Both the position numbers and the translations under genes were made by a program. Shown here in pieces: positions 35,745-55,541 of a stretch of 64,000 nucleotides of DNA. Source of the stretch: an uncultured Candidatus Saccharibacteria bacterium (GTDB lineage: Bacteria > Patescibacteriota > Minisyncoccia > Phycocordibacterales > UBA9973); the NCBI GenBank assembly GCA_964532495.1, contig CAZHJZ010000001.1:44644-108643 (forward strand), given 5' to 3'. Positions within the stretch are counted from its first letter, which is position 1. Each line of letters starts with the position of its first letter. The notes under the pieces are model-generated. The model was given only the letters and a program-made list of their open reading frames with translations. It was not told the DNA's origin and searched no databases.

Positions 35745-37208
35745 TCAGGAGGAAGATTCCGCTCGTTCATTTTCAAGAAGAGCGGTTTTTCTATTTCCCG
35801 TTCTCAGGAATAATATAGAAAGCAGGATCGTAAATACCATAGCACCTAGGCCTATATATATTAGATATGCATTCCCCGAAGCCTGCTTTTTTGTTTCTTT
35901 TGCGTGCCCATCTGAGTTAGGAATACTACTGGTGACAGAAACTGTCTCTGTTACTGGTATTGATGTACGGGATGTCGGAGTGAGTGTTTTTATGGATGTA
36001 TTTTTTTTCTCAGCAATGATTGTTTTTGCTTTTTCCATAGATATACCAGAAGGATCGATAAGCAGCGTTTCAGTACTTGAATCTGAAAACTTAGATATCG
36101 ACGGAGGTATGATTATTTTTGCTTTTGGAAGAACAATCAGATGGGCTGGGAATACATAGGCTAATTCTTTTTGATCTAGCCTCCACCCCAGCAAGTCTAC
36201 TTCTTGATTGCCAGTATTTGAAATCTCAATAGAACCATCAGATGATACTGCAGTGATAAGCATGGAACTAGCCAATACTTTGATAATTTTGCGTGCAGTT
36301 GCTTCGGGCTTGGTTTGTCCTGGGTACCTATAATATTCAAGATAGAGTACATACTCGCCCGGATATGCATACGTGTACGAAAATTCATTTTTATCCTGAC
36401 GTATGATCGAGCCTCCGTCACCAAAGCTCCATAGAAAGTTGCCAGTAAATAATTCCTCCCCACTGTTTCCTGTTGCTTTAGAAGAAAAAAGCGCCGGAAC
36501 CCCAACAGTAAATTTGGAAGGCGTAATAATTTTTACTTCATATGGTACTGATTTAACCTTCACTACTCCTGATTTTGAAGCTGTTATCGGTGAACTCGGA
36601 GGGCCCGAAGCTTCGACACTAGAGTCCTGAGTATCAGCGGAACCCGAGTCATCGACTGGTTCAGCTGTATCGGATTCTGTGGATGTAAACTGATTTTGAT
36701 AACCTGGCGTCGGAATTGTCGGAACAAACAAATCATTATCATTTCTTGAAAGCGTGTTTCCATCTCCGCTAGCGCCCATTGAACTTGAATAAATCATAGT
36801 ATCAATAACTGTGCCGCTGCTGTTCACCATAGTCAAAGTTCCTGATGAATTGTTGAGCGACATGACAGTATCAATAACCGTACCCGTGTAGTTTGGATGA
36901 TCAGATAGGTATACTGATGCATTGCCGGTAAGAATGGCATACCCGCCGGGCTCTATTGAGAGTGTTCCCTGTCCGCCATTTCCAGGAGGGGTATTGAGCG
37001 TATGGCTTGAACTATCTGTAAATTTCCATCCAACGAGAGAGACCGATGTTGCCCCAGTATTATAAAGTTCTACCCATTCATGATCGGTGTCTGAGAGATC
37101 TTTTACGTCATAGAGGACTTCGTTGATGATGATAGAAGGTGCGGCGCGGGCGAAGCCCGCGCCGCACAAGCACACACATACAAAAATACCCAAGATTATT
37201 TTTTTCAT
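35745..37208 (-). CDS. lamin-tail-domain (LTD) protein, secreted with C-terminal TM anchor
   Basis: Signal peptide, two LTD motifs (IIINEVLYD...HEWVELYNTG and ITAVSSDGSIEISNTGNQEVDLLGWRL), an Asp/Ser-rich linker, and a C-terminal hydrophobic anchor with a basic tail. Confidence 0.65.
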   Translation of the reverse strand: MKKIILGIFVCVCLCGAGFARAAPSIIINEVLYDVKDLSDTDHEWVELYNTGATSVSLVGWKFTDSSSHTLNTPPGNGGQGTLSIEPGGYAILTGNASVYLSDHPNYTGTVIDTVMSLNNSSGTLTMVNSSGTVIDTMIYSSSMGASGDGNTLSRNDNDLFVPTIPTPGYQNQFTSTESDTAEPVDDSGSADTQDSSVEASGPPSSPITASKSGVVKVKSVPYEVKIITPSKFTVGVPALFSSKATGNSGEELFTGNFLWSFGDGGSIIRQDKNEFSYTYAYPGEYVLYLEYYRYPGQTKPEATARKIIKVLASSMLITAVSSDGSIEISNTGNQEVDLLGWRLDQKELAYVFPAHLIVLPKAKIIIPPSISKFSDSSTETLLIDPSGISMEKAKTIIAEKKNTSIKTLTPTSRTSIPVTETVSVTSSIPNSDGHAKETKKQASGNAYLIYIGLGAMVFTILLSILFLRTGNRKTALLENERAESSS

Positions 37209-37237
37209 AACCTCGAGTATAAATGCTGCGCCTGAAA

Positions 37238-40200
37238 TTATTCTAAAATCTGTTTCAATAAATCTTCAGGAACTTCTTTTGTTTTTTTACCTGCAGGTAT
37301 CTTGGTACCATGCTGAACATCTTCTTTTGTTGCTTCCAATATCTTTTCTTTTTCCAGCCGCTCCGCTTCTTCTTTTTGTTCTATTTCTTGTTCAGCCTTG
37401 ATTCGCGCCTCTTCTTCCCGTTTCTTCGCATTCAGAAGTTCTTGCGCTTCCACTTCCTTACGGCGCAGTTCTTCTTTCAATTCTTCTTCTTGCCGCTTTG
37501 CTTTCAAACGCTCTTCTTCCTGCTTTGCCTGAAGTTCTGCGAGTTCGCGCTTTCTGGCTTCGTCGATTTCCATAAGCCGTTTCTTCTCAGCTTCAACTTC
37601 AGCTAAAGCTTTGATACGGGCTTCTTCTTGTTCAGCCAATCTCTTTTTCTCTGCTTCTACTTCGCGCTCCATTTTTTCTTTCAGTTCCTGAAGCTTTCGC
37701 TCTTCTTCTTTTTGCTTCGCAATAAGAGCTTGCTTCATTTCTTCATCTTTCCGCTGTTTCTCTTCAAGCTCGCGCTTTTCTTGTTCTTGTTTTTGCTTTT
37801 CTTTTTCCAGCCGCTCCGCTTCTTCTTTTTCTTTTTCCGCCTGCAATCGAGCTTCAGATTCAAGTTTCTCTAGAGCGGCCTTTTTTGCGGCATCGGCGTC
37901 GGTGAGCGCATCCTGAGGAGGCAGTATAGTAGAGCCTGTATTCTGAGCTTGCGGCTGCGGTGGAATATTTATCGTGATATGCACATCTGGAGATGGTTGT
38001 GGTGTTTCCGGAGGCTTCGCTTCGCCCATGGCCAAAGAAATGGCATCTTTGAGCATATTTTGGCGTTCTGGCTGAGCTTCTTTAGTAGGAGTTATGAATT
38101 GCGAATTTGTTTTATTCTTAAGGCTATCGAGCGAAAGTCCTGCTTTCTGAGGTTCCGGAGCAGCATTATTTTCTTGAGCCTGTTCTTGTGAAGCAACAGG
38201 ACGTTGGGGCTGAGAACTTCTCATGACACCACCTAAAGCGTCTTTCAACAGACTCTGTAATGCTCCAGTATCAGGCATCTTGCGCTCTTTACGTGCAATA
38301 GGCGCTCGTACTGCCCTCGGTTGCGGCAAAGACACATCAGTTGACGAAGAACCTGTTGTGCGAGATGGTGCGCCAGCAGGCTGCGGTCGAGGAGCTTGCG
38401 GCGGCACATCTCGAATATCCGCTCTAATCATTCCTTGCGGAGGCATAGTCGGATCGGGTCTGCTATTTGAAACGCGCGGAGGCATTGTAGGCGCAGGACG
38501 AGGAGCTTGAGGTGCCATCGGTCGCGGTGATGGAGATGGTGAAGAAACAGCGGCTGGTGTAGACACTGGCTCAGTTGTAGCTCGAGGAGTTGCGGCAGGC
38601 TGAGTAGCTGGTGCTGGGCGAGGAGTGAATGATGAAGGCGTAGGCGTTCCAGGTCGCGGAGTATATGCAGGACGTGGCGTGTATGCGGGTCGATCATTTC
38701 GAGGCGGAGCTGCTGAGCGAGTTTCTTCCTTAAATTCAATACCCAGACTTGCGAGTGCGTTGTATGAAATATTATCCTTTCGTTCTTTTGGCGGACGGAA
38801 TCCAGCTCCCGCTTCTATTTCACCGTTTTTAATCTTGAAGAGACATTCTTTACAGTAAATTGGACGGCCTTCTTCGGGCTCAAAAGGAACATAAATGGAT
38901 TTGCCGCAGTTTGAACATGTCGCTTTGAATTTTCCTTCTGTTTCTTCTCCATCAGGTCGCGTCTGTCCAGGCACGGTAGAACTCCATTTCTGAATTTCAG
39001 CTTCAACTTCGCTTCGTCGGCGGGTAAAGTTATTTCGCGAAGTCTCAATAACACTATTACGAATATCATCAGATGTCTGCACATTTACTGGCGGAAGCGT
39101 TTTAGCGGAAAACGGACGCGAAGTAACACCGTCCACCATGAGCTTGTTATAGATATGATAGTTTGGCAGGTTGACGAAATCTTCAACAGTAAATTCTGGT
39201 TCAAATTCTTTTTCGAGAGCATCGGCATCATCGGCGCCGACACGGAAAATAATCATCGTACCAACGTTACCGAACACGGCGTCTTTCACTGTTTTTGAAT
39301 CAGCAGTTTCGAGCTGTGCGATGTATTGGTGAGCGATGATCAAGCACAAACGGTATTTACGCGCTTCAGAAAGAATTGAAGCAAACGAGTCAGTAACAAA
39401 GTTTTGGAATTCGTCCACATACAAGTAAAAGTCTTCACGCTGGTTTTCAGGAATACGAACACGCTCCATGGCAGAAAGCTGGAGCTTGGTGATCAACATA
39501 CCTCCAAGGAGCGCAGAGTTGTCTTCACCGATACGTCCCTTTGACACGTTCACCAAGAAGATCTTCTTGTTGTTCATGATATCAAAGATGTTGATCGTTG
39601 ATCGTGTTTGTCCAACCACGTTACGCACAATGTTTGACGACAAAAATTGTCCGACTTTGTTTTGAATCGGAGCGATAGCTTCGTTACGGAATTGGTCACG
39701 CCATGCTTCGTATTCGTGCACCCAAAAGGCTTTCACCACTGGGTCTTTCAAATTGTTGATGATGTACTGGCGGTAGTCTTTGTCCACCAACATACGAGGA
39801 ATACCCAACAGCGTTGTGTCGGGCGTATCGAGCAACGCCAAGATGGTGTTGTTCAAGATGTATTCCATTCGAGATGACCAGGCATTGGCCCAGATTTTGG
39901 TGAAGATTCCCATCAAACCGGATGCAACCAAGTGCTTGTATCTTGGATCGTCGAGCTGCAAAACGTTAAATCCGATGTTGTGATCAGTGTCAGCCGGGTT
40001 AAAGTAAATAACATCCCCTGCTCGTTCTGGCGGGATTGTCTCCAATATTTTCTCAACCAGTTCTCCGTGCGGGTCGACAACACAGACACCTTCACCTTGG
40101 TGAATGTTCTGGATGATCATGTTTTCAAGCATTACGGATTTACCGGTACCGGATTTACCGAGCACATACATGTGCTGGCGTCGGTCTTTTCGCTTGATGC

Positions 40201-40273
40201 CGAAAATTTGATCGGTACCTCGGAAGTTCGTCTTCGCGAAGTACGTTATATCTTTGTTGAATGGAAAATCCAT
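37238..40273 (-). CDS. VirD4/TraG/TraD-like (T4CP-like) P-loop ATPase fused to a zinc ribbon, a Pro-rich linker and a long E/K coiled-coil tail
   Basis: Walker A YVLGKSGTGKSV, Walker B FYLYVDEFQNF, and IIAHQYIAQL. A C4 ribbon CSNCGKSIYVPFEPEEGRPIYCKEC follows at about residue 470, then RPAYTPRPAYTPRPGTP... and an ERLEKEK-type coiled coil of about 330 aa. 1011 aa. Confidence 0.65.
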   Translation of the reverse strand: MDFPFNKDITYFAKTNFRGTDQIFGIKRKDRRQHMYVLGKSGTGKSVMLENMIIQNIHQGEGVCVVDPHGELVEKILETIPPERAGDVIYFNPADTDHNIGFNVLQLDDPRYKHLVASGLMGIFTKIWANAWSSRMEYILNNTILALLDTPDTTLLGIPRMLVDKDYRQYIINNLKDPVVKAFWVHEYEAWRDQFRNEAIAPIQNKVGQFLSSNIVRNVVGQTRSTINIFDIMNNKKIFLVNVSKGRIGEDNSALLGGMLITKLQLSAMERVRIPENQREDFYLYVDEFQNFVTDSFASILSEARKYRLCLIIAHQYIAQLETADSKTVKDAVFGNVGTMIIFRVGADDADALEKEFEPEFTVEDFVNLPNYHIYNKLMVDGVTSRPFSAKTLPPVNVQTSDDIRNSVIETSRNNFTRRRSEVEAEIQKWSSTVPGQTRPDGEETEGKFKATCSNCGKSIYVPFEPEEGRPIYCKECLFKIKNGEIEAGAGFRPPKERKDNISYNALASLGIEFKEETRSAAPPRNDRPAYTPRPAYTPRPGTPTPSSFTPRPAPATQPAATPRATTEPVSTPAAVSSPSPSPRPMAPQAPRPAPTMPPRVSNSRPDPTMPPQGMIRADIRDVPPQAPRPQPAGAPSRTTGSSSTDVSLPQPRAVRAPIARKERKMPDTGALQSLLKDALGGVMRSSQPQRPVASQEQAQENNAAPEPQKAGLSLDSLKNKTNSQFITPTKEAQPERQNMLKDAISLAMGEAKPPETPQPSPDVHITINIPPQPQAQNTGSTILPPQDALTDADAAKKAALEKLESEARLQAEKEKEEAERLEKEKQKQEQEKRELEEKQRKDEEMKQALIAKQKEEERKLQELKEKMEREVEAEKKRLAEQEEARIKALAEVEAEKKRLMEIDEARKRELAELQAKQEEERLKAKRQEEELKEELRRKEVEAQELLNAKKREEEARIKAEQEIEQKEEAERLEKEKILEATKEDVQHGTKIPAGKKTKEVPEDLLKQILE

Positions 40274-40415
40274 CTGGTTGGTATTTTAAGCAACAGCCCA
40301 ATAGCGGGCTAAGCTCCCACTAGTATATCAAGTAATAAAAAAATAAACAAAAAATGCTTTGTTTACAAGGTTTGACTAAATAGAACGGTCACGGTACATT
40401 GAAGAAAAACTACGC

Positions 40416-40757
40416 ATGGGACACCACGATAAGCCACTTCATTGGAAAATTCATATACCATACCTTTTATCAAACAGCCCTACGCCTCCGTACGATTCCT
40501 CCAAATTCCCCTTTAGCTACTTTGAGCGGCCAATTAACGCAACATATAAAAGCCTCGTACAAAAAATTGCCACTGTTTTTAGTGAATCTGTTATCCATGG
40601 AATGAAAAGCGGCTCATTTGCGCACTGCATCATTGATGACAAACACATCACGCTTGAAGCTCAAAGCACTGAGTTCATGCCTGTACAAATCGAAAACAAA
40701 GAAAACCTTATCAAAGAAATAGTAGCTCAGGCTAAAACCGCAATAAACATAAAGTAA
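40416..40757 (+). CDS. hypothetical small protein on the opposite strand, between the ATPase gene and the Cys-rich operon
   Basis: 113-aa ORF with a strong intrinsic terminator right after its stop and a TTGACT-N17-TACATT promoter at about 40366..40394. Confidence 0.4.
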   Translation: MGHHDKPLHWKIHIPYLLSNSPTPPYDSSKFPFSYFERPINATYKSLVQKIATVFSESVIHGMKSGSFAHCIIDDKHITLEAQSTEFMPVQIENKENLIKEIVAQAKTAINIK

Positions 40758-40759
40758 CC

Positions 40760-40791
40760 ATCCTCCGGAACCCACCCGGTGGATTTTTTTA
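40760..40791 (+). terminator. rho-independent terminator after 40416..40757 (also abuts the stop of the last Cys-rich gene)
   Basis: ATCCtCCGG-aacccac-CCGGTGGAT followed by TTTTTTT. Confidence 0.6.
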
Positions 40792-42444
40792 TACGAATGC
40801 TTGGTTGTAACAGGTGTCGCAATATAAAATTTCTGGACGGTCAGGAGAGTAAGATGTTTGAATGGGAGTTGAGCAATTGGAGCAGGTACGACTAAACAAC
40901 ATGTTTGGGCCGCGCGCCGCGAAGCGGCGCGCGTGCCTGCAATCAGGACAAAGATGCGGCAACGGGATTTCCAACCGCTTATAAAACGAAAACTCATTCG
41001 GAATGATGCGATAATTCTTGGTGCAAGATTCGCAAGCAAAAATTTCCTTTGCTAAATCACTGTCGGTTTCTCCGATAGCATCAGGCATTTCCGACCACTG
41101 CTTCGTTTCTTTTCCATAAGTACCGCGCGGCGTATCTTCCCACTTAAAACCTTGGGCAAGCGCTTCTTCTTTAGAAAGAGGAAACTGTTCCTGAGTCGCT
41201 GATTCGTTGTATCCAAAACACGAAATCTGAGCTGGGAAAAACTGGCCGTATTCCCCCGTCTCTTTCATTTGCGCAACGATCTCACCCCTCAATTGCTCAT
41301 ATGTTTCTTTATCATACTGCTTATTCAAAATACAATAATCTTTTTTACGTAAACCTGCACAACCAAAAATGTAGTTTGAATTGAAACAATTCATTGCGTA
41401 CTCGGCAAACGTGGAACTCCAAACCTGGGCGCAGCAAACATAGTTGGCAACGTCGATGCCAGCGTTAATTGAATTGTAGATCATGCTGGCATTTCGTCCG
41501 GCAGTAGAAACGTCCATGCAATCCTTGGCATTTCGCCACACATGTTCGGCATAGGAGCAATCCTCTGCATCATAACAGTGAAAACATTCCTTGCAGTTCT
41601 TTGCATGCTTCATGTAGTTGCCTGAAGAATTCATCGTATTTACAATCTCTGCATACTTTCTCGGCTGAGTCAGTAAAAATTCATTGAAAGCAGCACGAAA
41701 GGCCTCCAATCCAGAGGCGGTATCAAGGCGCATCTCCTGCACCTTTGCAAAATAATCTTCCTTCGAATACGCCTGATTAAAAATATAATATTGCTGCTGG
41801 CGTAAATTCACGCACCCCAAACAATCCGAGCAGCCCTTGCAGTCGATCAGAAAGGCGCTTTCGCGGCAATCATGGCAGCCTTTTGAATATTTCAATTTAT
41901 ATGAGTTGTAGCAATCGTCGCATTCGTAACAAAGCTCGCATTTGGAAGCGAACGATGTATCAATAACATCGCGGCATTCCTGGATCCAAAATGAATGAAT
42001 GGAATCTTCATTGTTCGAGCTTTCAATAATGAAGTAGCAATTTTTGTTGTCGGCGGAAATATTAATGTATTCGCTACCAGGACTGCGAACGTAAATCAAA
42101 GCAACCTTTGGTATCACTGTATACAATTCTTCAAACTGCTCCATAAATGGTCGTGAAGGGTCGTATTCCCGCGCATACTCTATGCCATCCCAATCATCAG
42201 CAAACCAACATTCGTAACACCAAACCGTATACGGCTTATTCGGTGAATACATGGAAACAACATCCTTTTTGCATTTGTCGCACGCGCGCTTGTAAAAAAC
42301 ACGCTCGTTGCGAAAACTGAGGCGCAACTGGGCACGGCAGATTGGACAGAGATTGGGAGGAATAACACCTATTTTTTCATAAAATGAAGTGTCATTCTCT
42401 GTCACTGTAAAGCTAGCGGTACATTTGTCGCAGGTTTTTTGCAT
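40789..42444 (-). CDS. cysteine-rich zinc-ribbon protein, array paralog 1 (last gene of the operon)
   Basis: 551 aa. N-terminal ribbon C-x2-C...FYEKIGVIPPNLCPICR, repeated C-x2-C clusters, the YYIFNQAYSKEDY motif, the C-terminal ribbon CESCTKNYRIIPNEFSFYKRLEIPLPHLCPDCRHARR, and the end ...YCDTCYNQAFV. Confidence 0.7.
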   Translation of the reverse strand: MQKTCDKCTASFTVTENDTSFYEKIGVIPPNLCPICRAQLRLSFRNERVFYKRACDKCKKDVVSMYSPNKPYTVWCYECWFADDWDGIEYAREYDPSRPFMEQFEELYTVIPKVALIYVRSPGSEYINISADNKNCYFIIESSNNEDSIHSFWIQECRDVIDTSFASKCELCYECDDCYNSYKLKYSKGCHDCRESAFLIDCKGCSDCLGCVNLRQQQYYIFNQAYSKEDYFAKVQEMRLDTASGLEAFRAAFNEFLLTQPRKYAEIVNTMNSSGNYMKHAKNCKECFHCYDAEDCSYAEHVWRNAKDCMDVSTAGRNASMIYNSINAGIDVANYVCCAQVWSSTFAEYAMNCFNSNYIFGCAGLRKKDYCILNKQYDKETYEQLRGEIVAQMKETGEYGQFFPAQISCFGYNESATQEQFPLSKEEALAQGFKWEDTPRGTYGKETKQWSEMPDAIGETDSDLAKEIFACESCTKNYRIIPNEFSFYKRLEIPLPHLCPDCRHARRFAARGPNMLFSRTCSNCSTPIQTSYSPDRPEILYCDTCYNQAFV

Positions 42445-42453
42445 GTATGAGTA

Positions 42454-44151
42454 TTATACTACTTCTTTTTGATAACAGTCTTCGCAATAAATCGGTCGCG
42501 GCTCCTTGTCGGTAAAGAACGTCTCAAAGGTATTTGCACACCGACTATCATGTCCGTGGGAATCTTGCCCACAATCACACTGACGAGAAACGAGATCATA
42601 CCCACCCCTCATATTTTGGCGCCTCATATGACGACAGAAGAAACATTCAGTTGGAATTGGGACTGCTAATCTTCGATAGAGCAAGAGCTCGTCAGGCAGA
42701 ATGCGGTAATTTCGCCCGCAGCTTTCGCAGGCCAAAATTTCTTTTAGAATTTCATCTGTAACATCATGTATAGAATTTGGAACTTGGTCTTGAGAAATAG
42801 TTTCCTTCCCTTTCGTCTGCTGAATTTCGTCTTGCCATCTATAACCTTGAGCCAATGCGTCTTCTCGATTGAACTGTAATTCCCAATTAGCTCGTGTTTC
42901 ATTTATGCCGAATGGCGAAAGAGAGGACGGGAAAAATTCTCCATACTCTCCACGAATTTTCATATCTTCAATTATTTTCTTTGAGAGTTCCTGATATTCC
43001 TCTTTTGAGTATCGCTTGTTCAAAATAACATACTCTCCTTTTTTTACACTTGTACAGCCAAGAATGTTATTGCATCCATGGCAGTCAAACGAATATGAAG
43101 CGAAGGTATTTTTCCAGCATTCAATTGTAGAGAGGCTTCTCGATGACTGATCTGGCGTAATGCACTCATATGCAAGCTCAGTTTCGCCGCCGACTTCGCA
43201 GTCATAACACATTTTGTATGTCACGCCATTATGTACATATTTTGAATCTTCTGAAAATGAGGCAAACGATGAAGACTTGGTATTTTTGCCGCGAATAATA
43301 TCTGAGCCAGTACACGCGACGCTGCTTTGCAGCTCAGCGAATTTCCGAGGATAGGGCGCAACCCATTCAGTAAATTCCTTTCGTGCTCGTTCATAGCCCG
43401 ATCGTGTATGGAGCTGATATGACTCTAAAATGTGCTGATATTCTTCTTTTGAATATTGCTGATTTTTGAAATAATATTTTTTGTTTCGCAGGCCGCTAGA
43501 CATAAAACAATCTTGCGAGCCGCGACAGTCATAGCAAAGAACACAATTGATGCATGATGTGCACCAATATACGCTTCTGCAGTTAGAAACTCCATTAGCG
43601 GCGACACCATCATACAGATATTGCGATTCCTCGGTAATAATCAATGTATCTGACATGTCTTTTCCCGCTGCGAGCGAAACTGAGTTAAATACATTTTCAA
43701 CTCTCCAAGCAATGAAAACCATAGCGCAGTTTTTTGCAAAAGCCACATCGTTCGTATAGAGACAGTTAATGCTTGCAATATCGTTGTCGTTTACGATTCC
43801 AAGTACTGGAGTCTTATGATTAAGCTCCACTACCTGTTCAATAAAAGAGCGCGTCGGATCATACTCAACGCCATAACTATACGGATCCCAATTATCGCTA
43901 TGAAAACATTTTGGACAAAGCACGGTAAAACCGCTATTCGGCGCATAGATGGAAATAAAATTCTTTTCGCAAAGCGAACACTGGCGCGAATAGAGGTTGA
44001 AATCATTTCTCCACGACAAACGCCGAATACGGCGGCACCGCGGACAAAGCGTCGGAGCTGGAACGTCAATCTTCTCATAAAAGCCTAAATCGTCAGCTTC
44101 GATTACGAAGGCAGTTGAGCAGTTTTTGCATTGTTTGGTTTCTGGGTTCAT
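42454..44151 (-). CDS. cysteine-rich zinc-ribbon protein, array paralog 2
   Basis: 565 aa with the same architecture. The C-terminus is ...YCEDCYQKEVV. There is a 9-nt gap to paralog 1. Confidence 0.7.
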   Translation of the reverse strand: MNPETKQCKNCSTAFVIEADDLGFYEKIDVPAPTLCPRCRRIRRLSWRNDFNLYSRQCSLCEKNFISIYAPNSGFTVLCPKCFHSDNWDPYSYGVEYDPTRSFIEQVVELNHKTPVLGIVNDNDIASINCLYTNDVAFAKNCAMVFIAWRVENVFNSVSLAAGKDMSDTLIITEESQYLYDGVAANGVSNCRSVYWCTSCINCVLCYDCRGSQDCFMSSGLRNKKYYFKNQQYSKEEYQHILESYQLHTRSGYERARKEFTEWVAPYPRKFAELQSSVACTGSDIIRGKNTKSSSFASFSEDSKYVHNGVTYKMCYDCEVGGETELAYECITPDQSSRSLSTIECWKNTFASYSFDCHGCNNILGCTSVKKGEYVILNKRYSKEEYQELSKKIIEDMKIRGEYGEFFPSSLSPFGINETRANWELQFNREDALAQGYRWQDEIQQTKGKETISQDQVPNSIHDVTDEILKEILACESCGRNYRILPDELLLYRRLAVPIPTECFFCRHMRRQNMRGGYDLVSRQCDCGQDSHGHDSRCANTFETFFTDKEPRPIYCEDCYQKEVV

Positions 44152-45906: not shown

Positions 45907-45911
45907 AATTA

Positions 45912-47669: not shown

Positions 47670-47676
47670 AGGGTTA

Positions 47677-49392
47677 CTATAGCACTTCTTTTTGATAACA
47701 ATCTTCGCAATACACTTTCTCGATACGAAGAGGAGAATACGTAGTTTCAAAGCGATTTTCGCACTCGCCTTCATGGTTATGCCCCGAGATAGCACAGTTA
47801 CACTTCCTATTGTACAGCTCTGGTAGATTTACCATACTAAATCTTCGTAAGTGACGGCAGTTGAAACAATTCCTTGGCAGCGCGATTCCAAACCGTCGAA
47901 GCATGCCTAATTCTTCAGGAACAATACGATACACTTTGCCGCACGAAGCGCAGGAAAGTATTTCTTTTACAATATCATCTGCAACGTCAGAGATTGAATC
48001 AGGCAAATCAACGGATTTAATCGTCGCCGTAAAATTACCAGGAATAACTTCTCTGTATTTCCAGCCTTGCTGCTTGGTTGCCTCCTCGCTTAACGGCTTA
48101 TAATCCTGGGCGATGGTTTCATTATAGGTATAGGGCGAAAGCTCGATTGGGAAAAATTCGCCATAGCCATATGATCTTCCAGCACTGTCTATGTATTTCA
48201 TCTCATTCATCTGTGCGCGAATCTTTGGAACAAGCTCTTCGTATTCTTCCTTAGAATATTGCTTATTGAAAATACAGTACTGCTTTTTGCGCAGGCCAAC
48301 ACAGCCGAATAAATTGCTTGAGTTATGGCAATTGATGCAATATTCCATATTGTACGAATTCCAAACGGCGATACAAAAGAGCAACACGGCTGCCGTGTCT
48401 CCGCAGTCTACTGATTCATATAACCGTTCGGCGTTAACTCCGATGCCATACCCGTCATACAGATCGTACGAATTTACTAATGTATTTATTATATATCTCG
48501 AATCTTTTACTCCATCAAAGACGCTGAATCCATATTTAACATTGAAGCAGCTTCGGAGATTGTTTCCCGTAGACTCTTCAGAATTTATAAGATTGGCGTA
48601 TCGATGAATAGCGGCATTTTTTATTTCTGAGAATCTTTTCATCGCTTTCACAATATTGGAGTATGCAGCGAGATTGTATTCTTTTATTTTCTCTGAATAC
48701 TCAGCTTTTGTATATTGAACATTCTCAAATACATATTGCTTATTTCGTAAGTTTGAAGATAAGAAGCAATTATCGCAATTTTTACAGTCAAAAAGAAAGG
48801 CACAATCCGTACAAGCAGTGACTTGATCTGAAAAAAATACTCTATTGGACTTGAGGAGAGATACTGATTCATAGCAGTATTCTGAATCAGTAATCGCATA
48901 GCAATCCATGAGATTTTTTACTTTATTGGCGAGAACAGAATACAGAATATCTTCGGCATCCCAGGATGCAGAAACGAGATAGCAATTCTTGGCCTCCCCA
49001 ACATGATTGCCATATTCTGTATTAATAGACTTACCAATAAAGACGGCTGCCATAGGGGTGGCATTTAACAGTTCCCTATATTGTATGAAAAACGGTCGAG
49101 AAAAATCATACTCTCGCGCAGAAATACTTGTATCGCATTCATCTCCCCACCAAAAATCTCTCTCCACAATATTCATCCCTTCCTCGGGAGAAAAACAAGA
49201 AATGATAGATTTGCCGCTGGCATTTGAAGTAACCCTATGCAAAGTTCGCTCATTTCTGTACGCGAACCTTCTGATCATGCGGCACTGAATGCAGAAAGTC
49301 GGAAAAGGTACCTGAACCTTAGCGTAAAAATCCTGATCGGTTTGATCAATACTGAATTCAGTTTTACAGTTTTGGCAGGTTCGGGTTTCCAT
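47677..49392 (-). CDS. cysteine-rich zinc-ribbon protein, array paralog 5
   Basis: Conserved start METRTCQNCKTEF at 49392, 2 nt after the paralog-6 stop. The ORF track extends to 49419 via a TTG start. Confidence 0.7.
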   Translation of the reverse strand: METRTCQNCKTEFSIDQTDQDFYAKVQVPFPTFCIQCRMIRRFAYRNERTLHRVTSNASGKSIISCFSPEEGMNIVERDFWWGDECDTSISAREYDFSRPFFIQYRELLNATPMAAVFIGKSINTEYGNHVGEAKNCYLVSASWDAEDILYSVLANKVKNLMDCYAITDSEYCYESVSLLKSNRVFFSDQVTACTDCAFLFDCKNCDNCFLSSNLRNKQYVFENVQYTKAEYSEKIKEYNLAAYSNIVKAMKRFSEIKNAAIHRYANLINSEESTGNNLRSCFNVKYGFSVFDGVKDSRYIINTLVNSYDLYDGYGIGVNAERLYESVDCGDTAAVLLFCIAVWNSYNMEYCINCHNSSNLFGCVGLRKKQYCIFNKQYSKEEYEELVPKIRAQMNEMKYIDSAGRSYGYGEFFPIELSPYTYNETIAQDYKPLSEEATKQQGWKYREVIPGNFTATIKSVDLPDSISDVADDIVKEILSCASCGKVYRIVPEELGMLRRFGIALPRNCFNCRHLRRFSMVNLPELYNRKCNCAISGHNHEGECENRFETTYSPLRIEKVYCEDCYQKEVL

Positions 49393-49394
49393 GA

Positions 49395-51137
49395 TTACAG
49401 TACCTCTTTTTGGTAACAACTCTCACAATACACTATTTCCGATCGATCAGGCGAATAGCTGCTTTCGAATATATTTGGGCAATGTGCCGCGTGCCCGTGA
49501 GACTCTTGCGCACACATGCATGCACGTGGCCAGACCTTGAGCGGATTGCGCTTTGCCAAGCGTTCATAGTGACGGCAATTAATACAGAGTCTTGGGAGCG
49601 GAATTCCCATTCGCTTGTACATTTGAAGCTCAGATGGAATAACGCGAAACGCATTTGTGCACTGATGATTGCACGTTCCCGCATGCAAGCATGAAATTAT
49701 TTCATTCGTAATAGTGTCTTCAATATCGTGTATCGAATCAGGAACCGTTAAAACATCCTTGGTAGGCATATATGATTTATCTTCAAGTTTTCTCCACACA
49801 AATCCCCTCTTTTCAATCTCCTCTTTTGTCATTGGAAAATATTCCTGGGCAATTGATTGATTGTATGGGAAAAATGACATTTCTTCTGGAAAAAACTCTC
49901 CATACGTATACGTACGGCCGCCTTTGTCGACATATGGCATTTCTGTCATATGCGCGATAATTTTCGGCAATAATTCAAAATATTCTTCTTTAGTGTACTG
50001 CTTGTTCAAGATGCAGTATTTTTTATTCTTGATACCCACACAGCCAAAACAATCCGAACAGTTTTTTATAAAATAATTATACTGACAAGAAAAGCTTTCC
50101 CAGATGTTTGCCGAGAAGCAAACATTTTGAACATTGCTGCCAGAGTCCATCAAGTCATAGCTGTTTTCAATATTCACTCCGATGGCATACGCATCATGGA
50201 CGCTCTTCATATTCGTTACGCCGTAGACACAATATTTCAGATCTTCCGCCGGTCCTTCGATATCGAAGCATTCCAGGCAGTTTTTGGCGCCATTCAAATA
50301 ATCACCAGTTGAAGCAACGGTATGGCGCGAATTGGAATATCGGCGCGGATATTTCGCCAGTAGTTCTTGATATTTTTTCTCAAATGCTTCACGGCCTGAA
50401 GCAGTATCGAGATGCAAACGTGTCACTTCTTTTGCATATTCTTCCTGAGTGTATTGAACATTCAAAATCTGGTTCTTGGCGTTTCGAAGGCCGGCGCAGC
50501 CAATGCAATCCTGGCAATTATGGCAGTCATAGCAAAATTTTGATTTGATACATGACTGACAGAGCTGCAACCCATCGCAGTCGTAGCACTGTTCACAATC
50601 CACCATGTTTTGGCATTTTTCATTCTTTCGAGAACCAAGCATGTCAAAACAGTCCCTGTTTTCAATCGAGTGGTAGAGATATGCCGTATCCTCGTTCATG
50701 TCGCTGGCGAAATTCAGATAGCAGTTTTTAGACTGGTACGTAAAATTGCAGTAGTCACTGTTTACATCCTGGAGATTGATGAGCGCCGGTGCCGGAACTG
50801 AATACAAAAGCTCCTTAAATTGCGAGAAGAACGGTTTTGAAAAATCATATTCTTTATGATGATCCATCGCATCCCATTCATCACTCCACCAATATTTCTG
50901 ATCATAGACTGGAAGTTTTAGTTCGGGCGGATACATCATAATGATCATCTCCTCGTGGCCAGGAGCATCGCATTTACGTTTATACAGACTTCGTTCGTTT
51001 CTCCAAGCCAAGCGGCGCTGCAATCGGCAATCCGGACAAAATGTCGGTGAAGGAACATTCAATTTTGTATAAAAATCAAAATCCTCAGATTTGATCTGAA
51101 ATGATTGTGCGCAGTTTTGGCAGTTCTTTGTTTCCAT
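49395..51137 (-). CDS. cysteine-rich zinc-ribbon protein, array paralog 6
   Basis: Conserved start METKNCQNCAQSF at 51137, 2 nt after the paralog-7 stop. The ORF track extends to 51173. Confidence 0.7.
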   Translation of the reverse strand: METKNCQNCAQSFQIKSEDFDFYTKLNVPSPTFCPDCRLQRRLAWRNERSLYKRKCDAPGHEEMIIMMYPPELKLPVYDQKYWWSDEWDAMDHHKEYDFSKPFFSQFKELLYSVPAPALINLQDVNSDYCNFTYQSKNCYLNFASDMNEDTAYLYHSIENRDCFDMLGSRKNEKCQNMVDCEQCYDCDGLQLCQSCIKSKFCYDCHNCQDCIGCAGLRNAKNQILNVQYTQEEYAKEVTRLHLDTASGREAFEKKYQELLAKYPRRYSNSRHTVASTGDYLNGAKNCLECFDIEGPAEDLKYCVYGVTNMKSVHDAYAIGVNIENSYDLMDSGSNVQNVCFSANIWESFSCQYNYFIKNCSDCFGCVGIKNKKYCILNKQYTKEEYFELLPKIIAHMTEMPYVDKGGRTYTYGEFFPEEMSFFPYNQSIAQEYFPMTKEEIEKRGFVWRKLEDKSYMPTKDVLTVPDSIHDIEDTITNEIISCLHAGTCNHQCTNAFRVIPSELQMYKRMGIPLPRLCINCRHYERLAKRNPLKVWPRACMCAQESHGHAAHCPNIFESSYSPDRSEIVYCESCYQKEVL

Positions 51138-51139
51138 AC

Positions 51140-52789
51140 TTATGCAATTTCTTTGAGGTAGCATTCTTCGCACGCTATACGCTTATATCCCCATGCTTTT
51201 GGATAGTAGGTATTAATATCTTTCGAGCAAAAATTACAGGTTGCGGGCACAATCTTGCTTGGGGCCAGTTTCTGCATGCGCTCCTTTGTTCGCACATCGA
51301 AATGCACTCGCGGAATAGCAATATGCATCCGTCTCAAAAATGCTAATTCCTCAGCAGAAATATTGTAGCGCCATCCAGTTACTGGACAAATAAGAGGTTG
51401 TTTGGAAAAACTTTCATCTACATCGTCGATTGAATCAGGAATATCAGCAGTAGGCATTCCCTCAGAAATATTTTCTGCACCTTCATCCCAATATCCACCG
51501 TGCTCTAAAACATATTCCTTTGTAACTTCCGGAAAATAAATTGACGCAGTTGTGAGGTTATACGGAACAAGACCCAAAGAATACGACGGAAAGACGCCAT
51601 ACTCCCCTCGTGCTTTCATATCTTCAATGATTTTTGCTTTTAGCGACTCGTATTCTTCTTTTGAATACTGCTTGTTCAAAATACAATATTTTTTCTTGCG
51701 CAAGCCGACACAACCAAAACAGTATTCGCATTCGAGACAAATATCGCAATATTCCGAGTATCGAGTGCCATCACACCAAATTGAATATTTCAAATCATAT
51801 GCATTGGTACAACAACTATTATTTCCCGATAGCTGAACATCCCAACATCCAGTCTGGTCTATACAATCTTTGTCGTTGCGACCGCGCATGCAGTTTGTGC
51901 AATTTTCAGAATCCTCAATGCTAAAAATATTTACACAGTCATTACAATTGGCCATATAGTTGCCGATTGAATTTTGAGTTTTGAGGCTGAAGTTTTCTCG
52001 GTGAACTACGTTTTCTCTAAGTATCTCAAGGTACCGAGCTTTGCACTTTTCAAGGCCAGCATGTGAACCTAAATCATACTCCTTTAATTTTTCAAAATAA
52101 GCCTCTTTGGTATATTGTTCATTCTCAATGCAGTATGACTTGCCGCGTAGATTCCAGGACATGAAGCAGTTTGTTGAATTACGGCAATCAAAAAGAAAGG
52201 CACTGTCGATGCAGTCCTTGCAGTTGATAGAGAATAATAACTTGCTGCAGTTGAAACAATAGGTGCAGTTATAGCATTGATCGAGATTGAAGACGTGAGA
52301 AATATCTATGGAGTCTTTGCTATCAAATGCACGATAACCATACATGAGATTTTCTCCGCGAACCATCGAGCGACTCAGGTAAGAATTTTTACATTCCCAG
52401 AGATCATCTCCCCAATCTGAATCAACATTCTGCGCTCCAGTCTGATGTGGCCGTGGAACTTTTTCCTGAAGTTCTTTGAGTTGATCGAAAAACGGTCGGT
52501 TAGGATCGTAGTCTTGTCCAAAATCCATTGGATCCCAGGCATCGCTCCACCATTCTTTGGAAGTATAAATCGGATACCGAGCATGTTCAGGTAATATAGT
52601 AATTAATTTTTCTCCAGAAAGATTGGACTTGCGTACTCTAAATTTTCCGAAAGGCCAAAAAGCGAAATGTTGCTTCCATCGGCAATTACGGCAAATGTTC
52701 GGCACTTCCAGGCCGATTTTCTCATACATTCCCATTTCCCTCTCTGTAGTCTGAAACGAAGTGTTGCAGGAAGCGCAGGTCTTACTCAT
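51140..52789 (-). CDS. cysteine-rich protein, divergent array paralog 7 (first gene of the operon)
   Basis: 549 aa. It shares the N-terminal ribbon (CASCNTSF...MYEKIGLEVPNICRNCR), the central Cys clusters and the KKYCILNKQYSKEEYE motif. It lacks the C-terminal ribbon and ends ...ACEECYLKEIA. Confidence 0.7.
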   Translation of the reverse strand: MSKTCASCNTSFQTTEREMGMYEKIGLEVPNICRNCRWKQHFAFWPFGKFRVRKSNLSGEKLITILPEHARYPIYTSKEWWSDAWDPMDFGQDYDPNRPFFDQLKELQEKVPRPHQTGAQNVDSDWGDDLWECKNSYLSRSMVRGENLMYGYRAFDSKDSIDISHVFNLDQCYNCTYCFNCSKLLFSINCKDCIDSAFLFDCRNSTNCFMSWNLRGKSYCIENEQYTKEAYFEKLKEYDLGSHAGLEKCKARYLEILRENVVHRENFSLKTQNSIGNYMANCNDCVNIFSIEDSENCTNCMRGRNDKDCIDQTGCWDVQLSGNNSCCTNAYDLKYSIWCDGTRYSEYCDICLECEYCFGCVGLRKKKYCILNKQYSKEEYESLKAKIIEDMKARGEYGVFPSYSLGLVPYNLTTASIYFPEVTKEYVLEHGGYWDEGAENISEGMPTADIPDSIDDVDESFSKQPLICPVTGWRYNISAEELAFLRRMHIAIPRVHFDVRTKERMQKLAPSKIVPATCNFCSKDINTYYPKAWGYKRIACEECYLKEIA

Positions 52790-52823
52790 AAGGAAAGTAT
52801 AGCTTTTTAAGCTTACATATCAA
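52787..52823 (-). promoter_or_regulatory. putative promoter of the Cys-rich operon (near-leaderless)
   Basis: Minus strand reads TTGATA-N16-TATACT, with only 6 nt between the -10 and the ATG of 51140..52789. The transcript is predicted to be leaderless. Confidence 0.4.
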
Positions 52824-52845
52824 GCAAAAGTATGGAAAATTCTAT

Positions 52846-52874
52846 TTGACTAAAAGTAACAAATATGCTATAAT
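52846..52874 (+). promoter_or_regulatory. consensus sigma70 promoter for 52953..53369, divergent from the operon promoter
   Basis: TTGACT-N17-TATAAT with TGc upstream of the -10 (TGn-extended). Confidence 0.6.
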
Positions 52875-52893: not shown

Positions 52894-52941
52894 TTTAAGA
52901 GTTATTATAGCCGGGTACAGTCGCTTGTAATAACTCTTAAA
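52894..52941. repeat. perfect 14-bp inverted repeat (TTTAAGAGTTATTA / TAATAACTCTTAAA) separated by 20 nt
   Basis: Read directly from the sequence. It lies in the 5' leader of 52953..53369, 12 nt before its ATG, and about 100 nt upstream of the operon start on the other strand. Confidence 0.8.
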
Positions 52942-52952
52942 TCCATACCTCC

Positions 52953-53369
52953 ATGAAATCTACCAGCACCGTAATCATTCTCTCGTTTTTTCTTTTATTA
53001 ATTTGTTGCAAAAAAACACCCTCAAATTTAGCCAAAGAGACCACTACGGTTTCCCAAACCAAAGTTACTGAGCAACAAACTGCATCCCGTTTTACTGAAA
53101 CTGAAAAAACAACTGATTTTGATTCAACAACTATTTCTTGTGTAATTACACTTTTTAAACAAAAAGGCACCTTACATAATGGAATATATGAATACAAAAT
53201 CAATAAAGACTGTAGTGCGTACACCGACCGCAGCAGCACAAATACTTTCATTGTTAACTTATTTGGCCATAATTTCCTTGTGAAAAAAGGAAAAATCTAT
53301 GCGCCAATTAAGGTCAACAACCGCGAACTAATATACATCAAACAAGTAATTCGGGAATTACTTCCTTAG
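52953..53369 (+). CDS. hypothetical secreted/lipoprotein-like protein
   Basis: 138 aa starting MKSTSTVIILSFFLLLICCKK (signal peptide with Cys). The ORF is flanked by a consensus promoter and a hairpin terminator. Confidence 0.5.
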   Translation: MKSTSTVIILSFFLLLICCKKTPSNLAKETTTVSQTKVTEQQTASRFTETEKTTDFDSTTISCVITLFKQKGTLHNGIYEYKINKDCSAYTDRSSTNTFIVNLFGHNFLVKKGKIYAPIKVNNRELIYIKQVIRELLP

Positions 53370-53381
53370 CAAAAAAACATT

Positions 53382-53415
53382 AGTGATCCTTCTGCCAAAA
53401 GCGGAGGGATTTTTT
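53382..53415. terminator. hairpin terminator between convergent genes
   Basis: ATCCTTCTGC-caaaa-GCGGAGGGAT (two G-U wobble pairs) followed by TTTTTTAT. Confidence 0.5.
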
Positions 53416-53423
53416 ATATTCAA

Positions 53424-54893
53424 CTAGATCAAAGGCTCAGCGGCCTTTTCTTGTTGCGGCGCTGCTGCCTGGGCATCGGAAGATCCGCGGCCAGTGTGGC
53501 TGATAGCTGCTTTTTCTTGGGCACTTCGAATGATAGTGGATTCTTCTTCGGCGATAAGCTTTTTGGCCATATCGGCTGGAATTGAGAATTTGCGTCGTGA
53601 CGCTTCGATAACTTCTTTGCGGTATGAAGGATGCGTTGGCGGCAGCACTTTCAGTGTTTCAGCAGAGAATGGGTCGTATGATTCGCCGTCGATGGTCATT
53701 TTGATATAGAACTCCCCCACACCGAGGTTGATCAAATCTTTGGTATCGAAAATTGGCGCAAATTCAGCTTTGAGCTTGATTGCATCATCACCTCCCAAAC
53801 GGAATGAAATAATTGATCCGACGTTACCGAGCACGGCCTGTTGGACTTTCGGCAAAAGCTGACCGACGTATTGGTGAGCAACTGTCAGGTTGAGTCCGTA
53901 CTTACGAGCTTCTGAAAGAATGTTTTCGAATGTATCAGTAACGACGTTCTGGAACTCATCCACGTACAAGTAGAAATCATAACGCTTTGAATGATCAAGT
54001 TTTGCACGAGCCATTCCTGCTTGCTTGATCTTGGTCAAGAACATAGCTCCGAAGAATGACGAGTTTTCTTCACCGATCTTACCTTTTGAAAGGTTAATCA
54101 TAAGAATTTTTTTCTCGTTCATCACTTTTTCAATGTCGATGCGGTTTTCTTTTTGTCCGAAAATGTTGCGCAACATTGGATCTGACAAGAACTGTCCGAG
54201 CTTGTTAACGAGCGGGATGATAGCGTCGGTATCGAACTTTTCAGACCAGTCCGCGAATTCGATCGCCCAGAAGCGCTTTACCATGTCGTCTTCGATATAT
54301 TCAACCACTTTTTGACGGTAGTTACGGTCGGTCAGCATTGAAATCATTCCACGCATCGTTGCGTATGGGTAGTCCAAAAGCGCGAGTGTGGTAAATCGAA
54401 AGACGTGCTCAAGACGCGGAGTCCAGTTGGAACCGAATTGCTTTTCCAACACTTCAATCAAGCCTTGGGTCAATTGGTGCTTGAAAGTTGGGTCAACGTT
54501 TGCGAGCGGGTTAAACGAAGCTGGATATTCAATGTCGCCCGGATCAATAATACAGACATCTTCAACGCGTTCCTTTGGGATAAAGTCCAAAATGTCATCA
54601 ATAAATTCTCCGTGCGGGTCAATGACGCACACACCATGACCCTGAGCGATGTCCTGGCGCACCATAAGTTCCTGAAGTTTGGATTTACCGACTCCGGACT
54701 TTCCGATGATGTAGAGGTGACGGCGGCGGTCAACGCGCTTGATACCAAAAACATAGCGCTTTTCTTCCAAAGCGGCTACATAGTTGGTTCGTCCAATAAA
54801 CGACACGTCTTCGGTCGTAACCTTGCCAAACTCAGGAAGTTCAGGAGGCGGCGGAGCGTATTTGATTAATTGGATTTTATTAAGCCGTGCCAT
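53424..54893 (-). CDS. VirD4/TraG/TraD-like (T4CP-like) P-loop ATPase, short paralog of 37238..40273
   Basis: Walker A YIIGKSGVGKSK, Walker B FYLYVDEFQNV, and LTVAHQYVGQL. It is collinear with the N-terminal 420 aa of the 1011-aa protein. 489 aa, with no fused tail. Confidence 0.7.
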   Translation of the reverse strand: MARLNKIQLIKYAPPPPELPEFGKVTTEDVSFIGRTNYVAALEEKRYVFGIKRVDRRRHLYIIGKSGVGKSKLQELMVRQDIAQGHGVCVIDPHGEFIDDILDFIPKERVEDVCIIDPGDIEYPASFNPLANVDPTFKHQLTQGLIEVLEKQFGSNWTPRLEHVFRFTTLALLDYPYATMRGMISMLTDRNYRQKVVEYIEDDMVKRFWAIEFADWSEKFDTDAIIPLVNKLGQFLSDPMLRNIFGQKENRIDIEKVMNEKKILMINLSKGKIGEENSSFFGAMFLTKIKQAGMARAKLDHSKRYDFYLYVDEFQNVVTDTFENILSEARKYGLNLTVAHQYVGQLLPKVQQAVLGNVGSIISFRLGGDDAIKLKAEFAPIFDTKDLINLGVGEFYIKMTIDGESYDPFSAETLKVLPPTHPSYRKEVIEASRRKFSIPADMAKKLIAEEESTIIRSAQEKAAISHTGRGSSDAQAAAPQQEKAAEPLI

Positions 54894-54914
54894 TTCTATG
54901 TGAAATTATAGCAT
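54894..54914 (-). promoter_or_regulatory. TGn-extended -10 promoter of the 53424..54893 ATPase (very short leader)
   Basis: Minus strand reads TGCTATAAT, 12 nt upstream of the ATG, so the leader is predicted to be 5 nt or shorter. Confidence 0.45.
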
Positions 54915-54962
54915 ACCTTTTACTACAAATGACTAATCTCTCTATACTTTCAGTGCCTAAAA

Positions 54963-54990
54963 TTGACTAATCATGACTTTATTGTAATAT
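54963..54990 (+). promoter_or_regulatory. sigma70-type promoter for 55023..55541
   Basis: TTGACT-N16-TAATAT. Confidence 0.5.
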
Positions 54991-55022
54991 GAGGGAAATT
55001 TGTCCATTGTAAAAATTAGAAT

Positions 55023-55541
55023 ATGAAAGATTCAAAGCGAGATATTGTGTATGTACTAAATACCGATTCAAATGATGCAGCCGCCACTTCCCTTTCCCTT
55101 ACCTGGGGTGAAGGCGAACAATATTTTTTGAAAGCACTTGATACAGTAGTAGAAAAAGTTTTAGAATTTTACAGCAAAGAACAAAAACGCCCGGCCGTAA
55201 TCATTTATAGAGACCGGACAGCGTACGATATTGCGAGCGAATACCAAGCTCGTTTCAAGGGCATGCTTCAAGAAAAGCTTACCGCAAAAGGAATCCCTGG
55301 CTGCAATGTAATTTCAGCATCAGTCTGCGGTTCTGCCGCCAATGTTGTAACTATTGTACAGTTCGAATATCTTGATTATTCGGAAAAAGAATTTTTAGAA
55401 AACATTCAAGCGTTCGATAGTGCTTCCACTACACCACCAAAAGAAATTGAACATAATTACATTATCTATAGAATAGAAGGAACCACCTCCGTAAGTATTC
55501 CCGAAGACCAGAAAACAAAAACACAAGAGCCGCCTGAATAG
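55023..55541 (+). CDS. hypothetical protein
   Basis: 172-aa ORF with no family assignment. Confidence 0.5.
   Translation: MKDSKRDIVYVLNTDSNDAAATSLSLTWGEGEQYFLKALDTVVEKVLEFYSKEQKRPAVIIYRDRTAYDIASEYQARFKGMLQEKLTAKGIPGCNVISASVCGSAANVVTIVQFEYLDYSEKEFLENIQAFDSASTTPPKEIEHNYIIYRIEGTTSVSIPEDQKTKTQEPPE

Follow-up and report, generated by a model that had tools for sequence, protein, structure and literature searches.

A 64,000-nucleotide (64 kb) stretch of DNA from an uncultured Candidatus Saccharibacteria bacterium (contig CAZHJZ010000001.1), hereafter the window, carries a block of genes in which two ATPases resembling VirD4, the coupling protein of type IV secretion systems (T4SS), bracket an operon for seven cysteine-rich (Cys) paralogs. 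The gene for a lamin-tail-domain (LTD) surface protein lies beside one of these ATPases. Comparison with related genomes places the block in a conserved neighbourhood, native to the Patescibacteria chromosome, that links two orphan VirD4-like ATPases (termed H-type and D-type), the LTD protein (with the D-type) and arrays of Cys genes. The number of Cys genes beside or between the ATPases varies from none to ten or more; there are seven here. No paper was found in the searchable literature that links Patescibacteria VirD4-like ATPases, an LTD protein and Cys arrays. The ATPases themselves are known orphans, and the Cys family is unannotated. Protein matches assign this ultra-small bacterium to the Paceibacteria/Parcubacteria group of Patescibacteria.

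All the genes that a first-pass annotation of the window had claimed are present where it placed them, and the ATPase pair does bracket the Cys operon. The principal features are as follows (lengths in amino acids, aa).

53424-54893, minus strand: H-type ATPase, 489 aa, a soluble VirD4/TrwB-like P-loop ATPase
40789-52789, minus strand: Cys-rich operon of seven tandem paralogs, transcribed from Cys7 to Cys1
51140-52789, minus strand: Cys7, 549 aa, first gene of the operon
49395-51137, minus strand: Cys6, 580 aa counted from METKNC, 2 nucleotides (nt) from Cys7
47677-49392, minus strand: Cys5, 571 aa counted from METRTC
45912-47669, minus strand: Cys4, 585 aa counted from METRNC
44152-45906, minus strand: Cys3, 584 aa, the true start being the ATG at 45906
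42454-44151, minus strand: Cys2, 565 aa
40789-42444, minus strand: Cys1, 551 aa, the subtype with the best conservation
37238-40273, minus strand: D-type ATPase, 1011 aa, comprising ATPase domain, zinc finger and tail
35745-37208, minus strand: LTD surface protein, 487 aa

Conservation of the neighbourhood

The neighbourhood was sampled from both sides, with loci numbered L001 onwards. On the Cys side, 79 genome loci were seeded with the Cys family; in these, the paralogs typically form same-strand arrays of 1 to 10 or more genes. When L001 is added, a VirD4-like ATPase is present in 25 of 80 loci, nearly always on the strand of the array. We counted 128 array ends, each with at least 2.5 kb of visible flank: an ATPase is the first neighbour at 19 and the second at 4 (18% together), and the gaps between ATPase and array, where measured, range from 1 to about 200 nt. 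Our own chance estimate, about 0.2% per end, takes about two genes (PMC12102498) in an assumed genome of about 1000 genes; against this rough figure the enrichment is roughly 70-fold. All-against-all clustering of 1,245 neighbouring open reading frames (ORFs) from 87 loci (the 79 with the window, L001 and eight ATPase-seeded loci, L081-L088) gave the ATPase as the commonest conserved neighbour (32 loci), followed by a TrmB-type regulator (16 loci, Peregrinibacteria), DnaK (8) and DnaJ (6).

On the ATPase side, nine genomes were reached through H-type proteins on long contigs (L081 and L082 are two copies of one genome). Seven of the nine carry Cys genes no more than 10 kb from the H-type gene, L083 among them, where a 57-aa N-terminal remnant of a Cys gene (11524-11697, plus strand) directly follows the H-type ATPase. 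The order H, n Cys, D is found in the window, L016, L023, L076, L081 and L088, with rearranged orders in L074 (D-2Cys-H) and L065 (D-5Cys-H-5Cys). The D-type ATPase gene is followed by an LTD gene, at gaps of 9-31 nt, in the window, L023, L076, L085, L086, L088 and L106; over 16 cases the gene after the D-type is an LTD gene in seven, a Cys gene in six (gaps 1-84 nt) and another gene in three. In the distant classes Peregrinibacteria and Gracilibacteria the Cys arrays are followed by a VirD4-like ATPase of another subtype, about 747 aa long, whose N-terminal domain is unannotated. Among the close relatives sampled the local synteny (UvrABC ... H ... D-LTD ... methyltransferase) is strong, so several of these adjacency observations are not independent.

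Other genes recur around the arrays and the ATPases. In Peregrinibacteria and Peribacteria a 252-aa TrmB-family helix-turn-helix regulator (PF01978, E 6e-11) lies in or beside Cys arrays at the 16 loci noted above, usually on the strand opposite the array (examples are L009 11895-12653, minus strand, L017, L025, L043, L045, L055 and L061), and may be dedicated to them. Genes of the dnaK/dnaJ/grpE group recur beside H- or D-type ATPases or Cys arrays in some Paceibacteria loci (DnaK in L020, L066, L073 and L071; DnaJ in L034, L044, L058, L074 and L075; GrpE-DnaK in L105), which could reflect lineage synteny or be a hint of protein handling. L105 also holds a gene for a 2,051-aa SpvB/TcdB/RHS-YD-shell/Ntox44 polymorphic toxin (2077-8232, plus strand) about 1.8 kb upstream of the H-type gene, and a Cys7-type gene in two parts (14912-15094 and 15173-16555, plus strand), the split being due either to a frameshift or to an error in sequencing. 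Just upstream of the H-type gene in L088 (114-7700) is an integrated element with a serine recombinase and ArdC/MPTase-PolyVal, Phage_rep_O-like and AAA_13 proteins, and in L087 a serine recombinase gene (2602-4161) is likewise found upstream of the H-type.

The ATPases, the LTD protein and the Cys family

Of 3,035 Patescibacteria genomes, 2,918 (~96%) carry VirD4-type, or type IV coupling protein (T4CP), homologs, with 5,713 genes in all, about two per genome, only 148 of them near virB4; VirB4 itself is present in 2,417 of the 3,035 (PMC12102498). The window ATPases resemble these orphans in having about two copies per genome, away from virB4. Both score above the Pfam cut-offs for TrwB_AAD_bind, TraG-D_C and DUF87, and H also for T4SS-DNA_transf. 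As paralogs, the two share 46% identity across about 417 residues, which in D fall in the N-terminal 420 aa. Each has a RecA-like nucleotide-binding domain with the TrwB-type all-alpha insertion and a HerA-type DUF87 central domain; the Walker A motif reads GKSGVGKS in H and GKSGTGKS in D, Walker B is YLYVDEFQN in both, and the two motifs are invariant in our alignments A4 and A5. The best NCBIfam scores (44.6-58.8 bits against cut-offs of 250-650 for TraD, SXT_TraD and CD1115) fall far short of the cut-off of every TraD/VirD4 equivalog, and a sequence search of the PDB with the H-type ATPase gave no match. An AlphaFold2 (AF2) model of the H-type (pLDDT 79.6) matches known structures with the following scores.

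VirB4 C-terminal domain: 21.7
DptH C-domain: 21.5
TrwB: 20.8, with 350 residues aligned
DotL: 18.7
Cag-beta: 18.1
HerA: 17.3
EccC and FtsK: about 13-14

Because the H model matches the VirB4, DptH and TrwB folds, we place both ATPases, as soluble proteins, in the VirB4/VirD4 branch of the FtsK-HerA superfamily. They represent two orthogroups among the sampled loci. H-type proteins, of about 490 aa, are 70-83% identical there, and 80-96% identical over their full length in more than 120 clusters (at the 90% identity level); annotated homologs are named 'DUF87 domain-containing' or 'type IV secretion system DNA-binding domain-containing'. D-type orthologs range from 580 to 1011 aa, with ATPase domains 67-81% identical and a zinc finger in most. 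In the window protein the ATPase domain (38984-40273) is followed by a CxxC-x17-CxxC zinc finger of zf_Tbcl_2 type (aa 449-478, 38840-38929), which scores above the cut-offs of both PF23477 (46.6 against 27) and TIGR04272 (48.5 against 36), and by a disordered, low-complexity tail of about 530 aa (37238-38839) that is first P/Q-rich and then E/K-rich.

The LTD protein scores 89 bits against a PF00932 cut-off of 34.3, in two stretches with a PKD-like region between them, an LTD + PKD architecture repeated in L076. Its hydrophobic N-terminus (aa 1-19) is a signal peptide and a transmembrane (TM) segment lies near the C-terminus (aa 445-463). The first-pass annotation had put this gene upstream of the 1011-aa ATPase; the shared strand and the 29 nt gap are correct, from the D-type stop codon to the LTD start exactly, but transcription runs through the ATPase gene first, which places the LTD gene downstream. 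The two are probably co-transcribed.

The seven Cys paralogs of the window are 32-40% identical to one another and contain 5.0-7.1% Cys. Each starts with a zinc finger and lacks both signal peptide and TM segment, which points to synthesis in the cytoplasm. The AF2 model of Cys1 is confident (pLDDT 88.8, pTM 0.90) and predicts the following parts.

aa 1-45: zinc finger 1
aa 75-112: W/D-rich motif
aa 128-225 and 260-372: beta-solenoid segments, each ending in a C-x8-C-x8-C ladder
aa 468-511: zinc finger 2
aa 517-548: zinc finger 3

A helical linker lies between the solenoids and the two C-terminal zinc fingers. Each solenoid segment is capped by a helix with an NKQY.KEEY-like motif, which points to an internal duplication of the solenoid, and the N-terminal finger is homologous to the second (tblastn between paralogs, E 2e-14). 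Cys occupies at least 80% of positions in 21 alignment columns, which make up three four-Cys sites and the two solenoid ladders. A conserved basic stretch comes after every zf_Tbcl-type finger (CPxCRxxRRxxxRN at the N-terminus, CxxCRHxxR near the C-terminus). We found no nuclease or other effector domain in the family, and apart from the Cys/His metal ligands none of its conserved residues is of a catalytic type.

Neither Pfam nor NCBIfam has a curated model for the Cys family, and matches are sub-threshold: the window paralogs score 16-20 bits for zf_Tbcl (PF13451; cut-off 24) and 15.4 for zf_Tbcl_2 (cut-off 27). Of 63 members, 28 match zf_Tbcl weakly at the N-terminus and 10 match zf_Tbcl_2 near the C-terminus (best E 4.7e-6 and 6e-4), each finger of either type having four invariant Cys. 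The family resembles zf_Tbcl and zf_Tbcl_2 (PF23477, TIGR04272) in these weak finger matches, the finger of the D-type ATPase being a bona fide example, whereas the known examples are small stand-alone proteins of no known function and the Cys-family scores stay below the Pfam cut-offs. In small proteins of the archaeon M. mazei a domain of zf_Tbcl_2 type binds zinc (PMC12704099). A PDB sequence search with the family profile returned only chance nanobody matches, and a Foldseek search of the PDB with the Cys1 model found no significant match (no E below 0.015; TM about 0.1). The likeness to other beta-solenoids, Cys-laddered or not (Tenebrio antifreeze protein, curli CsgA, left-handed beta-helix enzymes), is one of generic fold only; unlike these the Cys proteins are predicted to be cytoplasmic, carry three flanking zinc fingers and show no sequence relationship.

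The family is large. A profile search returned more than 5,600 clusters at 90% identity, and among 1.84 billion representatives at 50% identity there are 5,317 matches with a threshold of E 1e-3 and 2,311 with one of 1e-30. The matches are uniform in length (500-630 aa), and those with a named source are all 'hypothetical' proteins from Patescibacteria bins. The genome loci span many classes, a few oddly labelled bins excepted, and as seen here the family appears to be confined almost wholly to Patescibacteria. Orthologs of individual subtypes are found in distant genomes (C1-type 52-76% identical, C7-type 45-68%, C2-type 74%, C6-type 65%), and the order of subtypes inside arrays is variable. 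On sequence evidence, then, the seven paralogs are ancient; the idea that they are fast-diversifying effectors is ruled out by these subtype orthologs at 45-76% identity.

Transcription and chromosomal setting

Boxes resembling a -10 element (TATAAT, TATACT and TAAAAT) lie 6-14 nt before the start codons of the H-type ATPase, Cys7 and D-type ATPase genes (regions 54894-54933, 52790-52829 and 40274-40313, respectively), and none of these three starts has a clear Shine-Dalgarno sequence. The closeness of the boxes and the lack of a clear Shine-Dalgarno sequence suggest leaders that are very short or absent. Promoter-like -10/-35 sites for Cys7 are present at 52931-52904 and 52823-52796. Given the boxes at H, Cys7 and D and the opposite-strand ORFs in between, the layout suggests three transcription units: H, Cys7-Cys1 and D-LTD.

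Within the Cys operon the longest-ORF starts of Cys3-Cys6 (GTG, TTG or an upstream ATG) overshoot and create false overlaps of 80-120 nt (44152-51173). The conserved METxxC starts, MET(R/K)xCQNC, restore intergenic gaps of 0-9 nt. The conserved C-terminal codons of the Cys genes (..CYQKEV.) are purine-rich (AAAGAGGT, AAAGAAGT, AAGGAA) and sit 10-17 nt ahead of the next ATG, at the junctions 49393-49415, 47670-47695, 45907-45930, 44152-44170 and 42445-42470. Because of this spacing and composition, the stretch that encodes the conserved tail of each Cys protein may also serve the next paralog as its ribosome-binding site.

The block lies in ordinary chromosome. It is flanked by genes for LepA, an ABC exporter, MurJ, DivIC, two tRNAs, a class II aminoacyl-tRNA synthetase, MreB/MreC, TGT, UvrB, SAM synthetase and YchF. 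GC content, GC at third codon positions (GC3) and synonymous codon usage agree between block and flanks. On these grounds the block is native and a recently acquired island is ruled out.

Four further genes had been drawn into the proposed cluster.

34243-34764, plus strand: extracytoplasmic function (ECF) sigma factor
34781-35734, plus strand: DUF5667 protein, single-pass membrane protein
40416-40757, plus strand: small opposite-strand ORF, 113 aa
52953-53369, plus strand: small opposite-strand ORF, 138 aa, N-terminus hydrophobic

The first two are what they were said to be (Sigma70_r2 plus r4, TIGR02937 84.5 against 42.9; DUF5667, PF18915 32.8 against 27), but they converge on the LTD gene, so the pair cannot be co-transcribed with it, and elsewhere a sigma/DUF5667 pair adjoins the module only in L081/L082. 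Promoters and terminators of their own had been attributed to both small ORFs. The ORF at 52953-53369 does have a strong promoter-like site (52846-52874, 11/12 plus TG) and a terminator-like hairpin (53385-53411); that at 40416-40757 has a weak promoter-like site (9/12) and no terminator-like site, and its product matches no protein family, with a homolog only in a contig of the same organism. Neither has homologs among the small ORFs at equivalent positions in relatives, which rules them out as parts of the system.

Between the block and the DivIC/LepA genes are tRNA-Phe(GAA) (55576-55649, minus strand) and tRNA-Arg(CCT) (56097-56169, minus strand), and between the H-type ATPase and tRNA-Phe is a 172-aa ORF (55023-55541, plus strand) for which no homologs were found. 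Elsewhere in the window (15373-16980, minus strand) a gene encodes a protein of 535 aa whose C-terminal half contains a zeta-toxin/AAA_33 kinase-like domain and whose N-terminal half is unannotated.

Possible functions

The reading that we consider most likely, and hold tentatively, is that the ATPases are coupling-type motors acting on the zinc-finger solenoid proteins. The ATPases would work in the manner of coupling proteins with the Cys proteins as their clients, possibly recognized through the terminal zf_Tbcl_2 finger, a type that the D-type ATPase carries (46.6 bits) and that some Cys proteins match weakly at the C-terminus (10/63). The clients, or nucleic acid bound by them, would be handed to an envelope machine, and outside the cytoplasm the D-type motor would be partnered by the LTD protein. 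The TrwB_AAD_bind, T4SS-DNA_transf and TraG-D_C domains and the intact Walker motifs are those of type IV coupling proteins (VirD4/TrwB/TraD/DotL). By analogy, the type VII FtsK/SpoIIIE ATPases (EccC/EssC) also have a motor gene beside tandem paralogs with conserved C-termini as possible recognition signals; unlike those systems, the window ATPases have no membrane domain and no multi-ATPase-domain chain, there are no WXG/LXG-type substrates or other type VII genes here, and the putative clients are proteins of about 570 aa, zinc-bound. A more specific version is quite improbable in our estimation, namely a T4SS-independent, lineage-specific system of export or surface assembly in which soluble VirD4-like ATPases would deliver zinc-finger beta-solenoids to the envelope, to be anchored or received by the LTD protein and to form a structure for host contact or for nutrient or DNA capture.

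A number of observations weigh against ATPases acting on Cys proteins. Gene adjacency is the sole link between the two. A hydropathy scan detected no TM segment in either window ATPase (one N-terminal TM segment is present in some distant relatives, L002 and L030), and no VirB4, other T4SS gene or relaxase was found among the ORFs of at least 500 aa in the window; type IV coupling proteins differ in both respects, in lacking the zinc finger and the ~530-aa tail that the D-type adds and in not having an LTD surface protein and zinc-finger solenoid arrays as neighbours. The zf_Tbcl_2 finger is missing from the H-type and Peregrinibacteria-type ATPases. Folded multi-zinc proteins are awkward secretion substrates, ancient paralogs with strongly conserved motifs do not suit fast-diversifying effectors, and H-type conservation of 80-96% looks like that of a housekeeping protein rather than a secretion accessory. 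The genes also do not travel as a unit. The first-pass annotation had envisaged the whole block co-varying in presence and absence, and comparison with relatives bears out a module in part: the D-LTD pair and the H-nCys-D order do recur, and ATPases flank arrays in distant classes, but in L086 and L106 the genes run H-CutA1-D-LTD without any of the Cys family, unrelated genes adjoin about 80% of the visible array ends, and many of the single Cys genes lack an ATPase within 10 kb.

This partial association suits the view that there is no functional link, with H-D-LTD and the Cys family independent of each other and an expanded lineage-specific family often occupying a tolerant intergenic hotspot by the ATPases, carried along by synteny. 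The Cys-free H-D-LTD loci, the other neighbours at most arrays and the strong local synteny among the close relatives sampled would all follow from it. We regard it as a serious rival but somewhat unlikely: the adjacency recurs in Peregrinibacteria and Gracilibacteria, which share no other synteny and have the different ~747-aa ATPase, it is kept despite shuffled order (L074, L065), the genes share a strand with gaps down to 1-11 nt, and the enrichment is roughly 70-fold over the rough chance estimate. Nucleic-acid handling is a different possibility. TrwB-type and HerA/FtsK-type ATPases are DNA-dependent motors, and some extracellular nucleases, Vibrio Xds among them, carry LTD domains. The ATPases could thus be DNA or RNA translocases for DNA uptake and scavenging or for chromosome handling, in a cell unable to make its own nucleotides, the LTD protein capturing extracellular DNA and the zinc-finger solenoids acting as cytoplasmic nucleic-acid-binding partners rather than as cargo. 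Such a role would fit the match of the H-type model to TrwB, HerA and FtsK folds, the conserved basic stretch after the zf_Tbcl-type fingers and H-type conservation at the level of a core function, as well as the occurrence of T4CP homologs in more genomes than VirB4 (2,918 against 2,417 of 3,035; PMC12102498). We count it too as a serious rival but think it unlikely, since no competence genes (comEC, comEA, pilus) were found in the block or among the annotated ORFs of the window, a set of seven or more paralogs seems larger than a generic nucleic-acid cofactor would call for, and the t4cp homolog of S. epibionticum is described, in work as cited in PMC12102498, as not essential.

An anti-phage defence or conflict system, with a HerA/DptH-like ATPase and the Cys paralogs as variable effectors or sensors, is suggested by weak PADLOC matches of the ATPases to mad8 and HerA and by the varying copy number of the arrays, and strikes us as very improbable. 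PADLOC reported no system and no match for any other protein, those of the Cys family included, and no NurA, Sir2 or DUF4297 partner domain was found in the neighbours of the ATPases, which in this respect, and in the lack of Dnd partners, differ from HerA and DptH (DndH). They are also near-universal and extremely conserved (80-96%), unlike patchy defence genes (PMC12102498). The composition of the block is native, and the Cys paralogs, ancient rather than recently diversified, have no nuclease or effector domain and no conserved catalytic-type residues beyond their Cys/His ligands. The idea that the block belongs to a conjugative or integrative mobile element, or is what is left of one, is close to refuted. 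VirD4-like ATPases are typical of such elements, and the ATPases have T4CP-type Pfam and NCBIfam matches; both also match phrog_5156, a family of no known function (E 5e-64 and 4e-53). A scan of IMG/VR with a single ATPase sequence found nothing, while a profile scan found soluble ATPases 30-43% identical to the H-type on 14 viral or mobile-element contigs (L090-L103, GC 34-59%); in the ORFs of five of these contigs no obvious T4SS or Cys genes were seen, Pfam having been run on four L092 proteins only. The block itself holds no relaxase, VirB4, integrase or repeats, has housekeeping flanks and native codon usage, and keeps a syntenic position across many genomes. The Cys family, moreover, is essentially absent from the viral contigs of IMG/VR (one partial match) and in PHROGs matches only a weak family of no known function.

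The role of the Patescibacteria coupling-protein homologs is an acknowledged open question, and whether they have been exapted was left open by the authors of the survey that described them (PMC12102498). The present locus and about 30 related ones provide the first candidate partners for these orphan VirD4-like ATPases: an LTD surface protein, for the D-type, and a Cys family of 2,311 to 5,317 clusters at 50% identity. They also draw attention to a large unannotated protein family of unusual architecture, three zinc fingers with a Cys-laddered solenoid, to which this organism devotes seven genes and 12 kb, about 1% of a genome assumed to be about 1 Mb. If the ATPases do export or assemble the Cys proteins without a T4SS, they would represent a new kind of secretion or assembly system, one central to the episymbiotic lifestyle.

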